From an uncultured Candidatus Saccharibacteria bacterium (GTDB lineage Bacteria; Patescibacteriota; Minisyncoccia; 2-02-FULL-40-12; GWA2-44-9), in assembly GCA_964429675.1 (NCBI GenBank), contig CAYSDF010000001.1, forward strand, positions 1 to 45,428: a stretch of 45,428 bases of DNA, read 5' to 3'. Below the pieces are notes generated by a model, which saw only the letters and a program-made list of their open reading frames with translations, ran no database searches and was not told the DNA's origin. A program made the position numbers and the translations under genes. Shown here piece by piece: positions 1 through 45,428 of the stretch; position 1 is the first letter of the stretch; every line of letters begins with the position of its first letter.

Positions 1-264
1 GATAAGAAGAATAATGCATGTAGACCAGTGGTAGTAGGTAAGCAAATAATAGACTATCCTGATGAAGCACTGAGGCTTGAGGCTATAAAGACAGCGTTTA
101 AACTACATGGAGTGTTGGATAGGAAGCAGGAAGACAGTATAAAGACCCAAGTTAATATCTCTATGGATAGCAATGACTTACCAAAGATGTCAGAGTTGAT
201 AGATAGACTAGATAGCCTGAGCAACAAGATGGGGTTTCTGATTGAAGACGGCGAGTGTGTGTAG
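1..264 (+). CDS. terS: terminase small subunit, 3' portion (same ORF as 45083..45428, joined across the circular junction; about 184 aa in total)
   Basis: Position 1 (= 45374) is in frame with the ATG at 45083. The N-terminal part carries LSLRQERFAQEYIKNNGDATKAAEIVY, the HTH signature of Terminase_2-type small subunits. It lies upstream of terL. Confidence 0.75.
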   Translation, partial: DKKNNACRPVVVGKQIIDYPDEALRLEAIKTAFKLHGVLDRKQEDSIKTQVNISMDSNDLPKMSELIDRLDSLSNKMGFLIEDGECV

Positions 265-330
265 TTAACATACGGTGTATTATAAGAAGTTCATAAGACT
301 ATGGCAATCATTGGCTTAAGAAATGAAAAC

Positions 331-349
331 GGGGGGCAGGGGGTGGGGG
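331..349 (+). other. G-rich tract GGGGGGCAGGGGGTGGGGG in the terS-terL spacer
   Basis: Read directly. Three G5-6 runs within 19 nt in an otherwise moderate-GC genome, non-coding, about 55 bp upstream of the repeat array. Confidence 0.6.
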
Positions 350-404
350 TTAGGATGAATAATCCCACTCAGAAATCGCTACGTAGTTTAAGCAAAAAGG
401 AATT

Positions 405-567
405 GTCGTGACAATCCAAATAAGTAAGCGAGAAATAAGTCGTGACATTTATAAATACCTAAAGGAAGGGGAATATGTCGTGACAAATCATGGAGTACCT
501 GAGTATGTCGTGACAATTAAGAAGGTAAGTGGAGAGATACCTGTCGTGACAAATAATGTCGTGACAA
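405..567. repeat. array of six direct copies of GTCGTGACA(A/T), usually preceded by T, between terS and terL; candidate terminase or regulator binding sites
   Basis: Copies start at 405, 439, 477, 507, 543 and 558. The core TGTC-GT-GACA is an imperfect inverted repeat. I saw no further exact copy elsewhere in the window. Confidence 0.8.
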
Positions 568-683
568 AAATAGATACAGTTGAAGAGGTACGAAAAGTAG
601 TAAAGTTTGTAGGAGAGAAACACAGTTGCGGGTGTAAGAGAGAGGGAAAGAATAAGACATGTCCGAAGCATTATTGTTATTGA
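408..683 (+). CDS. hypothetical 91-aa protein with a Cys-rich C-terminus (coding status uncertain)
   Basis: GTG start inside the first DNA repeat. The VVT tripeptides are simply the DNA repeats read in frame. The stop lies 1 nt before the terL ATG. C-terminus is HSCGCKREGKNKTCPKHYCY. Confidence 0.4.
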   Translation: MTIQISKREISRDIYKYLKEGEYVVTNHGVPEYVVTIKKVSGEIPVVTNNVVTKIDTVEEVRKVVKFVGEKHSCGCKREGKNKTCPKHYCY

Positions 684-684
684 T

Positions 685-2351: not shown

Positions 2352-4409
2352 ATGAAAATAGATAAAGACAGATTATTTGAGTTAAAGAACCAGATTATCA
2401 TGGCAGAGAAGCTGAATAAAGAAGAGCTTGAGCCCGTGATGAAAGAGGGTATTGAAAGGTATACGGGGATACACATCCCGAAGTACGGGTATAACTGGGA
2501 CATTATGTTGAATGAAGTGTATCCGATAATCCAGACGAATCTGCCGGCGATATTCTTTAGGAACCCGAAGGCGTTTTTAAAGCCGAGGCAGAAGACGTTT
2601 ATAGCCAAGAAGCTCGACCCGGAGACGGGGAAGAAGATTGATATCGAGATGGATTCCCAGAAATCAGCGAATACGCAAGAAGGGATACTGAATTACGACA
2701 TTTACCGCATGAAGTATAAACGGGAGACGAGGAAAGTCTTAGTAGATAGTTTGCTTTTTCCTCACGGAGTTCTTTGGCACGGATACAAAGGTGATTTCGG
2801 TATGACAGAGGAGCAGAATCTCTGGATAGAAGACGATAAAGTCTTTGTCTCGAGGCTTTGTCCGATACGGTTCATTAAAGACCCGAATGTGAATATGTCG
2901 AATATCGACGAAGGCAAGTGGGTCGGAAGAATCATCGACATGCCTTATCAGGATTTGGTCGAAGACGACAAGCTGGATGTGAATAAGGCTCTGATAAAAG
3001 GATTTAAGGGGTACGGAAATAAAGTAGGGCTAGCTTCGTACTTACATGCGAAGGACACACTACAGGTGGGTGGGGTCGACAAGCTCACGTTGGGCGGGTT
3101 TCGCAGGAATTTACTGGAGTTTACCGACGAAGGTTTTAGAGAAAGCAAGTATTCGAAGTTCGTGAGGGTGTATGAAATATTTTTAAGACCGACGAAGCAG
3201 GAAAGAAGAAAAGGCGGGAAGGGATACATACTGCTTTTGACTTTCGAGCAGCCGGAACCGTTAAGGGTGAATGAGTGGACGATTAAAGCCGAAGGGTTCC
3301 CGTCGAAGATACTTCAGTTCAACGAATTAAATGACCAAGAATACGGTATGCCGGATATCGATACCTATAAAGACATCGCTGACCAGAAAAACATCATTAC
3401 GAATTTACAATTACGAAATGCGCAGGAGAATTCAAAGGTTTATGTCGGGATAGCGACGGCGGGGATAGACGGCGAGGAGAATATCGAGAAGATACAGAAA
3501 GGCGACCAGACGATAATTCTTTTCCCCGGGGAAACGATATTAAACCGTATGACAGTACAGTCCGGTGGCGGACAGGCTTCCAGTGAGCTTTATCTTATCG
3601 ACCAGAGAATCCAGAAGAACCTCGATGACAAATCCGGGGTGACCGATTTACGACGGGGAGTTTTGCAGAGCGGGGAAGAGAGTGCCCTGAGTGTCAAGAT
3701 GAGAGCGAATGCCTCGACGGCCCGTCCGGCGTACCGACAGGACATCATGGCGGATTTCCTGAAAGAATCTTTTGTTTATATCAACCAGCTTCACAAACAG
3801 TTCATGCCCTACGAAGAGGCAGTGAGGATTATCGGGAGCCTGGATTTACAGTGGACGGATAAGCCGACCAGAGAGGATATACAGGCGGATGTGGATGTGG
3901 AGATAGACGCTATTTCGATGTTACCGGAGAATCCACAGGAAGAGTTGGCGCAGTTACAGCAGATTTTAATGTTGATGATGCAAGGCATAACCCAGCCAGC
4001 GATAATGGAGAAAATTAAGCAGGAAGGTAAGACGATAAATCTATCTCCGATAATCGAGCAGATACTTATCCGCTCGAAAATTAAAGACCCGGATATTTTC
4101 CGTAACCTGAAACCGGAAGAGAGTCAGGGATATGTAGCGGTCGAGCAGTTACAGGAAGCAAAGGCCAATGTTAATGCGGCCTTAACTGGTCAGCCTGTGC
4201 CTTTCCCCCCGAAGGTGCAGGATGACCATATAGCTAAGCTCGAGATTTATACTACGATACAGGAATTGCTGGCGAAAGCGAATCAGGTCAGTGACATCTT
4301 GGAGCAGTTGATACAGATACAGTCCCAGCTTTTACAGGAAGTGCAGGACAAACAGGCCCAAGAAGGGCAGAAGATAAATCTTAAAAAACCCCAAACGGTG
4401 AATATATGA
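2352..4409 (+). CDS. portal protein (putative)
   Basis: 685 aa from the first ATG (MKIDKDR). The ORF-track TTG start at 2337 lies inside the hairpin. Size and position immediately after terL, with an acidic Gln-rich C-terminus. Confidence 0.65.
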   Translation: MKIDKDRLFELKNQIIMAEKLNKEELEPVMKEGIERYTGIHIPKYGYNWDIMLNEVYPIIQTNLPAIFFRNPKAFLKPRQKTFIAKKLDPETGKKIDIEMDSQKSANTQEGILNYDIYRMKYKRETRKVLVDSLLFPHGVLWHGYKGDFGMTEEQNLWIEDDKVFVSRLCPIRFIKDPNVNMSNIDEGKWVGRIIDMPYQDLVEDDKLDVNKALIKGFKGYGNKVGLASYLHAKDTLQVGGVDKLTLGGFRRNLLEFTDEGFRESKYSKFVRVYEIFLRPTKQERRKGGKGYILLLTFEQPEPLRVNEWTIKAEGFPSKILQFNELNDQEYGMPDIDTYKDIADQKNIITNLQLRNAQENSKVYVGIATAGIDGEENIEKIQKGDQTIILFPGETILNRMTVQSGGGQASSELYLIDQRIQKNLDDKSGVTDLRRGVLQSGEESALSVKMRANASTARPAYRQDIMADFLKESFVYINQLHKQFMPYEEAVRIIGSLDLQWTDKPTREDIQADVDVEIDAISMLPENPQEELAQLQQILMLMMQGITQPAIMEKIKQEGKTINLSPIIEQILIRSKIKDPDIFRNLKPEESQGYVAVEQLQEAKANVNAALTGQPVPFPPKVQDDHIAKLEIYTTIQELLAKANQVSDILEQLIQIQSQLLQEVQDKQAQEGQKINLKKPQTVNI

Positions 4410-44659: not shown

Positions 44660-44735
44660 TTTATCTCCTTTAAATAGGTTTTTCTTCCTGTTGATAAATT
44701 TTCCGTCATATAAGTTGATGTTTGATTACATCTAT

Positions 44736-44764
44736 AATATAGTCCAGTGCCTAACGTTTGTCAA
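44736..44764 (-). promoter_or_regulatory. sigma70-like leftward promoter (TTGACA - 17 nt - TATATT), part of the GCTTGACAAA motif
   Basis: -35 at 44759..44764 and -10 at 44736..44741. About 70 nt upstream of the first leftward gene. Confidence 0.55.
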
Positions 44765-44785
44765 GCATTATTTTAATAAATAATA

Positions 44786-44813
44786 TTGACTCATTTTAAG
44801 TTGATGATAGAAT
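44786..44813 (+). promoter_or_regulatory. sigma70-like rightward promoter (TTGACT - 16 nt - TAGAAT)
   Basis: -35 at 44786..44791 and -10 at 44808..44813. It sits back to back with the leftward promoter across an AT-rich spacer. Confidence 0.5.
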
Positions 44814-44832
44814 GAAAACTGGAGGAGGGTCA

Positions 44833-45090
44833 ATGCGCCGTTATCCAGCGACGGAAGACATAAAAGAAAGTGATGCCTCTAATGATACCTTTGGGTATCA
44901 GAATTTGTCGGTTAGAAAATTTAAAACAAACCGGTATTGTAAATATTGCGGAAAGAAATTATCCATCTACAATCCCAATCGTTCAGTCTGTCACTTACAT
45001 ATCACAAAAGATTTAATTTTACGTACAGACAAAGAACTCGCCAAACAACTTCAAAGACAAAGGGCATGGCACACAATAAACGATGACTAA
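44833..45090 (+). CDS. zinc-ribbon protein (85 aa), first gene of the rightward unit
   Basis: ATG after GGAGGAGGG. The ORF-track ATG at 44812 lies inside the putative -10 box. CKYCGKKL....CHLH. Its stop overlaps the terS start. Confidence 0.5.
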   Translation: MRRYPATEDIKESDASNDTFGYQNLSVRKFKTNRYCKYCGKKLSIYNPNRSVCHLHITKDLILRTDKELAKQLQRQRAWHTINDD

Positions 45091-45428
45091 TCCGCCCAAA
45101 GAAAATCAATCAGTCATTACAGACCAGCCTTTAAAGAATCCGATCAAAAAACCTCGCCGGCTCTCCTTGCGCCAAGAAAGATTCGCCCAAGAATATATTA
45201 AGAACAATGGTGACGCCACAAAGGCAGCAGAAATAGTTTATGCCCGGCCAAAGAATAACTCCAATAGGGCAATAGCAAGTGAAAACTTAACAAAGCCAGC
45301 CATTGTTAATCGTATATCTCAAATACTCAATGATAAGGGGTTAGACCTAGATAGTTTAAGCCTAGATTTAAGGGATAAGAAGAATAATGCATGTAGACCA
45401 GTGGTAGTAGGTAAGCAAATAATAGACT
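45083..45428 (+). CDS. terS: terminase small subunit, 5' portion (continues at 1..264)
   Basis: ATG at 45083 overlaps the upstream stop. The ORF is open to the window end. See the feature at 1..264. Confidence 0.75.
   Translation, partial: MTNPPKENQSVITDQPLKNPIKKPRRLSLRQERFAQEYIKNNGDATKAAEIVYARPKNNSNRAIASENLTKPAIVNRISQILNDKGLDLDSLSLDLRDKKNNACRPVVVGKQIID
45374..45428. repeat. 55-bp terminal overlap identical to 1..55 (circular-contig closure)
   Basis: Both ends read GATAAGAAGAATAATGCATGTAGACCAGTGGTAGTAGGTAAGCAAATAATAGACT. Confidence 0.95.

Follow-up and report, generated by a model that had tools for sequence, protein, structure and literature searches.

A repeated palindromic DNA word embedded in a small conserved gene directly upstream of terL in an uncultured phage

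The stretch of DNA analysed in this study (the window, 45,428 nt in full) is a complete circular phage contig with the same 55 bases at either end, and it forms contig C1 of a bin of 84 contigs and 835 kb. Relatives of the bin have complete genomes of 0.4 to 1.0 Mb, and the host may be an ultra-small-genome bacterium, with binning as the sole link between the two. Since the contig is circular, with a 55-bp end overlap, the terS frame at positions 45083 to 45373 continues into positions 1 to 264. Its 5' part (45083 to 45428, plus strand; Pfam Terminase_2, E = 7.5e-8) includes the 55-bp terminal overlap, and its 3' part (1 to 264, plus strand) ends with the stop codon at 262 to 264. On the same strand follow a gene for a protein of 91 amino acids (408 to 683), preceded by a Shine-Dalgarno-like AAAGGA (396 to 401, plus strand, 6 nt 5' of the GTG start by sequence reading), and terL (685 to 2253; phrog_38, E = 2e-66), which begins 1 nt past the stop of the small gene with no intervening open reading frame. 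In relatives, terL matches Pfam Terminase-T7_RNaseH-like. Cultured relatives with known termini were not found: the best TerL match reached at most 31% identity, and the small protein was unmatched.

The small gene is occupied by an array of six exact copies of the 9-mer GTCGTGACA, which start at positions 405, 439, 477, 507, 543, and 558, all on the plus strand, with spacings of 34, 38, 30, 36, and 15 bp. Both the starts and the spacings were recounted and are identical to those of the original prediction. A longer form, TGTCGTGACAA, is shared by five of the six copies, and the copy at 439 reads AGTCGTGACAT. The sequence between the copies is not repeated, and the five spacings show no helical phasing. 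Dinucleotide shuffles of the window contained the exact 9-mer 0.16 times on average and at most twice, with six copies in none of 100, and in the 835-kb bin, all 84 contigs of which were searched, the 9-mer is absent outside the array.

Each copy was then placed on the gene. Word 1, TGTCGTGACA (404 to 413, plus strand, in the context TTGTCGTGACAAT), provides the start codon of the gene with its central GTG, confirming that the open reading frame 408 to 683 starts within the first repeat. Word 2, AGTCGTGACA (438 to 447, plus strand), lies out of frame and is read S-R-D in helix 1 of the predicted protein. The remaining four are all TGTCGTGACA on the plus strand and are read VVT: word 3 (476 to 485) in strand beta-2, word 4 (506 to 515) in strand beta-3, and words 5 (542 to 551) and 6 (557 to 566) in a variable linker. 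In line with the earlier statement, the VVT tripeptides are the repeats in frame at four words; the copy at 439 is read out of frame.

The open reading frame itself had been suspected to be either non-coding or dual-use. Judging by its homologues, it is a real conserved gene that belongs to a wide protein family, so that the dual-use part of this suggestion stands and the non-coding part does not. A word-indexed search yielded three homologues with 46 to 57% identity, each encoded between a terS and a terL, and when 1.84 billion cluster representatives were scanned in full by HMMER with an alignment of these homologues, the family grew to 121 of them at E ≤ 1e-3. Almost all of the 121 have 60 to 130 amino acids and match from end to end. 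They consist of an N-domain of about 40 residues with the consensus ..I..REF.R...KYLK.G...VT..G.....VTI, a linker that is hypervariable in length and sequence, and a C-terminal knuckle with the motif YGCGC-x8-9-CPKH-R, in which C74, C76, C85, and H88 are invariant. In the window the N-domain covers amino acids 1 to 40, and the knuckle reads C74-x-C76...C85-x2-H88; this CxC...CxxH arrangement is probably zinc-binding. The family is previously undescribed. Pfam has no entry dedicated to it, and the small protein found no match in PHROGs, in the PDB (by sequence), among GenBank phages, or in scans of IMG/VR and JGI data seeded with three alignments of the family.

A relationship of the N-domain is suggested by profile and structure comparisons. 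Pfam PhdYeFM_antitox (PF02604) matches 12 of 95 members with a best E value of 5e-8, and the window's own protein, P0001, has no Pfam match at E ≤ 0.1. An AF2 model based on the family alignment reached a mean pLDDT of 88, with about 95 over residues 1 to 40, and predicts the order beta-alpha-alpha-beta-beta. The best PDB matches of this model in Foldseek were almost all N-domains of Phd/YefM-type antitoxins, namely, those of VapB46-N, PfiA, Phd, and YefM, and included Phd with operator DNA (4zm0 and 4zm2) and YefM with DNA (6l8e and 7v6w). The superpositions have root mean square deviations of 1.5 to 2.2 Å over about 40 amino acids and probabilities of 0.9 to 1.0; the E values of 0.05 to 1 are weak because the N-domain comprises only about 40 amino acids. 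A Phd/YefM-type DNA-binding and dimerisation fold is the likeliest assignment for the modelled N-domain.

Repetition at the peptide level is common in the family. The same V-x-T tripeptide occurs in at least three copies in 29 of 95 members, against 0.025 in shuffles, and the linkers of other members contain short repeated peptides such as VAT, VTT, LSDK, IVRQ, and VTN. Repeated VVT in the window could be a structural peptide repeat or the product of a recent duplication, with the identity of the DNA incidental, and two of the VVT indeed fall in beta-strands of the conserved fold. The codons speak against this. Given the codon usage of the phage, spelling VVT as GTC-GTG-ACA has a probability of 0.016 each time, and all four in-frame copies are so spelled (P about 7e-8); the two VVT found elsewhere in the phage use other codons. 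Moreover, the out-of-frame copy and a non-coding base of word 1 are conserved, the word of one relative (L379) is read in three frames, and the sequence between copies is not repeated. We consider the codon identity, the out-of-frame copy, and the three-frame word to refute the peptide-repeat or duplication reading, to which we assign next to no probability.

Comparison with the homologues shows that the words are under selection at the DNA level. At 43 to 57% protein identity, exact copies of the word are kept in L019 (five), L020 (four), and L237 (six); the last of these is a more distant homologue that was found only by a DNA-pattern scan and matches the family profile with E = 9e-13. Also retained in the homologues are the out-of-frame copy read S-R-D and, just ahead of the GTG start, the GTC that is not translated. 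Where a residue is conserved outside the words, its codon is identical in only 45% of cases (27% between the window and L237), and synonymous sites therefore drift. Of the in-word and out-of-word comparison, only this out-of-word rate of 45% was used, next to the codon-usage test, the in-word class being discarded because it is circular by construction. The proposed alignment of relatives, intended to tell whether the DNA motif or the protein is conserved, thus favours a function of the DNA: the words stay exact while synonymous sites elsewhere drift. Scans for word arrays across the whole collection returned mostly unrelated tandem repeats or Rac-like iterons carrying the 9-mer by chance, and L237 was the true relative among the matches. 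On the basis of these sequence comparisons, the array is best described as a conserved cis-acting DNA element within the packaging module.

DNA could be read for 12 loci of the family, and in each the small gene carries its own palindromic word of the form TTGTC-N1-2-GACAA. For L374, L375, and L379 the words were predicted from the linker peptides ahead of DNA retrieval. L375 has three copies of TGTCACGACA, the exact reverse complement of the window word, read VTT. L374 has three copies of TTGTCCGACAA read LSDK and, in the opposite orientation, a start copy read MSDK. The four copies of TTGTC(A/T)GACAA in L379 use three frames and both orientations (FVRQ, CLTN, LSDK, and IVRQ). In L373, TGTTGTAACA (three copies, read VVT) has symmetrically altered half-sites, TGTT..AACA. 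L367 contains TGTCGTGACA and TGTCATGACA, and its start copy TTGTCATGACAAT comprises a perfect 12-bp palindrome, TTGTCATGACAA, plus the ATG.

Word placement is conserved although the words differ. A word sits on the start codon, as word 1 does in the window, also in L019 and L020, and the start copy of L367 likewise holds its ATG. The place of word 2 in helix 1 (SRD in the window) is occupied in the same way in L019 and L020 and, in L379 and L380, by their own word read VRQ. In the alignment column of word 3 (beta-2), words occur in L019, in L373 (TGTTGTAACA, VVT as in the window), and in L379 (TGTCTGACA, CLT), and in that of word 4 in L019, L020, L367, and L373. At every locus read, the words are confined to the small gene or its cassette, and across loci their spacings are irregular (12 to 66 bp). 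Since the words are independent of orientation and reading frame, and since their half-sites change symmetrically, they point to recognition of duplex DNA by a symmetric dimer. The core had been predicted to be an imperfect inverted repeat for a dimeric DNA-binding protein, and both the occurrence of words in either orientation and the symmetric half-site change in relatives uphold this. From these comparisons, the words are very probably protein-binding sites in duplex DNA.

An alternative is that the words act in the mRNA, where they would pair or bind a protein (e.g., through the knuckle) and thereby regulate how the small gene and terL are translated. In the window, L019, L020, L367, and L374 the start codon falls within a word, all six copies of the window have the same orientation, and UUGUCGUGACAA copies could pair with each other via G-U wobbles. 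However, a word that is inverted, as in L375, or that occurs both ways round in the same gene, as in L374 and L379, yields different RNA sequences, and in L369, L371, and L380 words lie upstream of the start point of a near-consensus promoter and would hence not be transcribed from it. Also, the 5' region lacks a fold signal: neither an Rfam match nor an RNA structure was found in positions 1 to 1000, and the fold z-score was -0.41. We therefore regard a function at the RNA level as very unlikely.

The cassette of gene and words is tied to terL, next to which it lies in 11 of the 12 loci. It is located directly upstream of terL or at most two small open reading frames away in the window, L019, L020, L237, L367/368, L371/372, L373, L375, L379, and L380, with a TerL of another family, phrog_2, in the case of L375. 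On its 755-bp contig, L374 has no neighbouring terminase gene, and no recognisable terminase neighbour was seen in L369/370. We also considered a toxin-antitoxin pair, given the fold, and rejected it: there is no conserved downstream partner, because the downstream open reading frames of 49 to 77 amino acids in L367, L371, L373, and L369 are unrelated to one another, and these frames have no toxin domain.

In Rac-like prophages of enterobacteria (L053 and some 20 loci), a ydaU/O-like replication gene contains the same 9-mer GTCGTGACA as tandem iterons with a period of 10 to 11 bp, and the iterons of the lambda origin lie inside gene O, partly in the linker between its domains. The array could thus be a replication origin with iterons inside an initiator gene. 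Words 5 and 6 lie in linker-coding DNA, a place reminiscent of the linker of lambda O, and in L005, a terL relative, the interval from terS to terL contains three perfect DnaA boxes. Against an origin stands the location of the cassette in the packaging module, with terL as its neighbour in 11 of 12 loci and the replication genes elsewhere; in L380, DnaB and primase are encoded on the other strand. The GC content of 0.37 to 0.40 across the array region, compared with 0.43 for the contig, includes no strikingly AT-rich unwinding stretch 3' of the array, GC skew tracks gene orientation only, and domain searches revealed no initiator-type domain in the small protein. Lambda O and the Rac-like genes resemble the cassette in that the sites lie inside the gene of their presumed binder and are inherited with it as one unit. 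They differ in being replication initiators within replication modules, with tandem sites at a period of 10 to 20 bp, whereas the cassette adjoins terL, has irregular spacings of 12 to 66 bp, and encodes a Phd/YefM-like protein of 91 amino acids. An origin of this type appears highly improbable to us.

Two further conserved non-coding elements adjoin the array. The first, TTAACATAC-N5-ATTATAAGAAG (265 to 289, plus strand), lies directly 3' of the terS stop and occurs once in the window; related elements were found in L237 (twice), L367, L373 (twice), L374 (3' of the small gene), and L006. A candidate general phage promoter, TTAACATAAC...TATAGGAAG, was rejected because it occurs only once in the genome. 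The second element (322 to 385, plus strand) contains the G-tract GGGGGGCAGGGGGTGGGGG at 331 to 349, 55 bp 5' of the first word, and has the order G6-CA-G5-T-G5, about 14 nt, CCCACTC (364 to 370), and then ..CGC... Over about 60 nt its shared form is G5-N-G5-N-G5, about 12 nt, and AACCCCACTCTCAC-GCGC..AAATTTT. It could be aligned in the window, L374, L008, L012, L002, L004, L006, and L001, was also seen in L379 and L380, and is shared by relatives that have the small gene and others that lack it. The predicted G-tract upstream of the array is therefore present, and 331 to 349 is the only spot in the window with three runs of at least four G. A G-quadruplex at this place is not borne out by the sequence pattern, as there are only three G runs and the canonical four-run pattern (at least 3 G per run, loops of 1 to 7 nt) is absent from the whole window. 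Covariation was not found for the G-tract element or its hairpin.

Either of the two elements could be a true packaging or cleavage signal. In L006 a 127-bp overlap of the contig ends, which has the look of a direct terminal repeat, runs from just 3' of the TTAACATAC-N5-ATTATAAGAAG element into the G-tract. We did not accept this overlap as physical ends and take it as no evidence for them, since assemblers commonly use a k-mer length of 127; the end overlaps of both the window (55 bp) and L006 (127 bp) match such lengths.

The original prediction regarded the array as a packaging recognition region of the pac or cos type bound by TerS, in which case the 91-aa frame would merely tolerate the sites or be an unrelated passenger. 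Such sites are well known: pac lies inside gene 3 of P22, gene 1 of SPP1, and pacA of P1 (with seven hexamer repeats), and lambda cosB contains the repeated R sites. In favour of this reading, terS and terL flank the array in the window, L019, L237, L367, L373, and L380, the words are unique in the genome, as a single packaging site should be, and two other conserved non-coding elements adjoin it. To examine the link to TerS, we compared TerS and words across five loci. The window and L237 have an identical word and N-domains that are 56% identical, yet their TerS, which align over only 36 amino acids with a score of 29, show no relationship closer than that of the family. For L237 and L373, in contrast, the TerS are more similar (score of 127) but the words differ. 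In this comparison the word type changes with the N-domain of the small protein and not with TerS, which argues against TerS as the reader of the words.

Further observations also fit poorly with TerS as the reader. No Terminase_2 gene was seen upstream of the cassette in L369/L370 and L375, and terL relatives of 45 to 60% identity that lack the small gene lack such a word, too. A TerS ring fits a short symmetric palindrome less well than a dimer does, and the helix-turn-helix domains of SF6/SPP1-type TerS bind DNA with little local sequence specificity (PMC4737164). As a unique cis site of short repeats in or beside the terminase genes, the array is similar to pac and cosB sites (for SPP1/SF6, see PMC4737164), but those are read by TerS, whereas here the word is not linked to TerS and the gene that contains the sites is a third one, distinct from terS and terL. 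We hence consider binding by TerS improbable.

The known members of the fold, which act as dimers on short palindromes at their own genes, suggest another reader. At the promoter of its own gene, YefM protects TCATTGTACAATGA palindromes, and it also protects a second core, TGTACA (PMC1802561). The ATTGTC-NN-GACAAT of the cassette resembles this YefM site TCATTGTACAATGA; in both cases a TTGT...ACAA-type palindrome lies at the gene of the known or putative regulator. A corresponding layout was found upstream of some family members. L380 has a promoter that matches the consensus in 12 of 12 positions (TTGACA-16-TATAAT). The spacer of this promoter contains one word; 23 nt upstream there is a second, and codons 8 to 11 hold a third. 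The ATG is located 7 nt past the -10 element. The promoter of L369 matches in 11 of 12 positions (TTGACA-17-TATACT), and its word layout is that of L380. Thus, both carry putative operators within the predicted promoter of the gene itself, a layout like that of Phd/YefM autoregulation. This arrangement was seen only in the subtype with a 1-nt spacer in the word, i.e., L369, L380, and L371 (by eye only). A sigma-70-like promoter was not found 5' of the window gene; the sigma-70 consensus may not be that of the host.

Taken with the fold, these comparisons make the embedded 91-aa protein the probable reader of the words. That word and protein are inherited together is trivial, as both reside in one gene. 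An alternative binder would be a regulator of the host or a different phage protein, in which case the small protein would serve an unrelated purpose. It is sequence comparison that ties the words to the small protein, and palindromes of the TGT-N-ACA type serve many regulator families. Nevertheless, the type of word (1- or 2-nt spacer, TGTC or TGTT half-sites) varies with the embedded N-domain, words occur only in or beside the small gene at every locus, and the known members of the fold bind such palindromes at their own genes. A separate factor is accordingly rated quite unlikely.

Our best model, which we hold to be somewhat better than an even bet on the strength of the sequence evidence, is that the small protein binds operators embedded in its own gene just upstream of terL. 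Symmetric dimers of the 91-aa protein would occupy duplex words such as TTGTCGTGACAA, with gene and sites forming one cassette directly 5' of terL. Several dimers would presumably cover the 5' end and the body of the gene, one of them over the start codon and two at conserved coding places of the N-domain; in some relatives a site would also be occupied within the gene's own promoter, as in autorepression of the YefM type. Six sites over 160 bp of coding DNA exceed the need of simple autorepression. Occupancy might shut down expression of the small gene together with transcription running into terL. The occupied array, its knuckles free to contact a partner, might also be a landmark where the terminase starts packaging. 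From the sequences, we rate these two outputs, gating of transcription (of the small gene and terL) and a mark for the start of packaging, about equally likely.

A more far-reaching proposal, which we put forward as doubtful but worth stating, is that the cassette represents a third, sequence-specific packaging component in a large lineage of uncultured phages, possibly those of ultra-small-genome bacteria. A dimer with Phd/YefM fold would coat the operators in its own gene, the zinc knuckle would pass the DNA to TerS/TerL, the small protein rather than TerS would set pac, and the G-tract element would be the point of cleavage or entry. If the cassette does gate or nucleate packaging, a sequence-specific adaptor would be added to the two-subunit model of the terminase, and the repeated word would offer a simple rule for locating packaging control regions in metagenomic phages.

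Among known systems, YefM-YoeB of E. coli and Phd-Doc of P1 share the predicted N-domain fold with the small protein. In Phd/YefM systems the cognate toxin (of the Doc, YoeB, or RelE type) is encoded downstream, whereas the small gene has no toxin partner. The C terminus of these antitoxins is a disordered tail that binds the toxin; the small protein has an invariant CxC...CxxH knuckle instead. Unlike Phd/YefM loci, the cassette contains up to six sites, mostly intragenic, and is part of a phage packaging module. An antitoxin fold thus seems to have been re-used without a toxin and fixed beside terL in an uncultured phage lineage.

With respect to gene position, the cassette may be compared to RinA, ArpU, and LtrC, the late-operon activators encoded next to terS in phages of Gram-positive bacteria. 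As would hold for the small protein, these are small phage DNA-binding regulators encoded at the head of the packaging operon, where they control transcription. They differ from the small protein in their fold, in being encoded upstream of terS, and in having a promoter, not the gene that encodes them, as their target, and domain and PHROG searches found no homology between them and the small protein.

The cassette also provides an unusually clear natural case of dual-purpose DNA and a useful system to study how the constraints of binding sites and coding sequence are reconciled. Across the family the word is found in any of three frames and in either orientation, and the protein adapts to it, with VVT, CLT, SRD, or VRQ at homologous positions.

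The terS-terL interval contains a conserved non-coding element of about 60 nt (window 322-385), which consists of three G5 runs followed by AACCCCACTCTCAC-GCGC..AAATTTT. The same G-tract element was found in the related loci L002 (1049-1145), L008 (3535-3630), L012 (2814-2910), L004 (2273-2370), L006 (98-200), L001 (983-1085) and L374 (491-590), and it is kept both in phages that carry the small gene, encoding the 91-aa Phd/YefM-like product (window 408-683), and in phages that do not. TerL identity among the phages retaining it is merely 50 to 60%. A search of the element for covariation and for a matching Rfam family found neither.

Directly 3' of the terS stop codon, the sequence TTAACATAAC-N5-ATTATAGGAAG (window 265-289) occurs only once in the 45-kb genome, yet is kept in distant relatives, namely in L237, L367 (3467), L373 (2876 and 2910) and upstream of L006. 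It is also present in L374 (433), where the element of this type is placed downstream of the small gene instead. L006 is a 42,306-bp IMG/VR contig, classified there as having direct terminal repeats, and its 127-bp end repeat (1-127) starts just past the TTAACATAA element and ends within the G-tract. This repeat could be a chance assembler overlap at k=127 or a hint of real ends at both elements.

Other occupants of this neighborhood were observed as well. Between terS and terL, the terL relative L005 has three perfect DnaA boxes (3682-3740), TTATCCACA, contained in GTTATCCACAG; they occupy the intergenic interval where the window carries its word array. An HNH-endonuclease-like small gene adjoins terS or terL in some terL relatives (L001:620-832 and L010:3038-3391), replacing the Phd/YefM-like cassette. 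In the window, a 92-aa open reading frame (44812-45090) just upstream of terS encodes a CxxC...CxxH zinc-ribbon-like motif and has a weak DpnI-family match (E 0.008); it is preceded by an AT-rich divergent region (44660-44811) that divides the minus-strand from the plus-strand gene block.

Complete genomes of the bin's relatives, among the 40 nearest, measure just 0.4 to 1.0 Mb, and the lineage is therefore one of ultra-small genomes; none of these 40 carries a member of the small-protein family. Only binning links the phage contig to this host.

The 9-mer of the window's array also forms tandem GTCGTGACA iterons with a 10- to 11-bp period inside a ydaU/O-like replication gene of Rac-like enterobacterial prophages (L053:10876-11250, with about 20 comparable loci in IMG/VR, including L023, L043 and L054). 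The word is identical; that array is origin-type and unrelated. In L019, a compared locus, a near-copy in opposite orientation, GACACGACA, lies at 596-612 in addition to five exact words, and two VVT tripeptides are spelled GTGGTAACA; these could be variant sites or sites undergoing decay.
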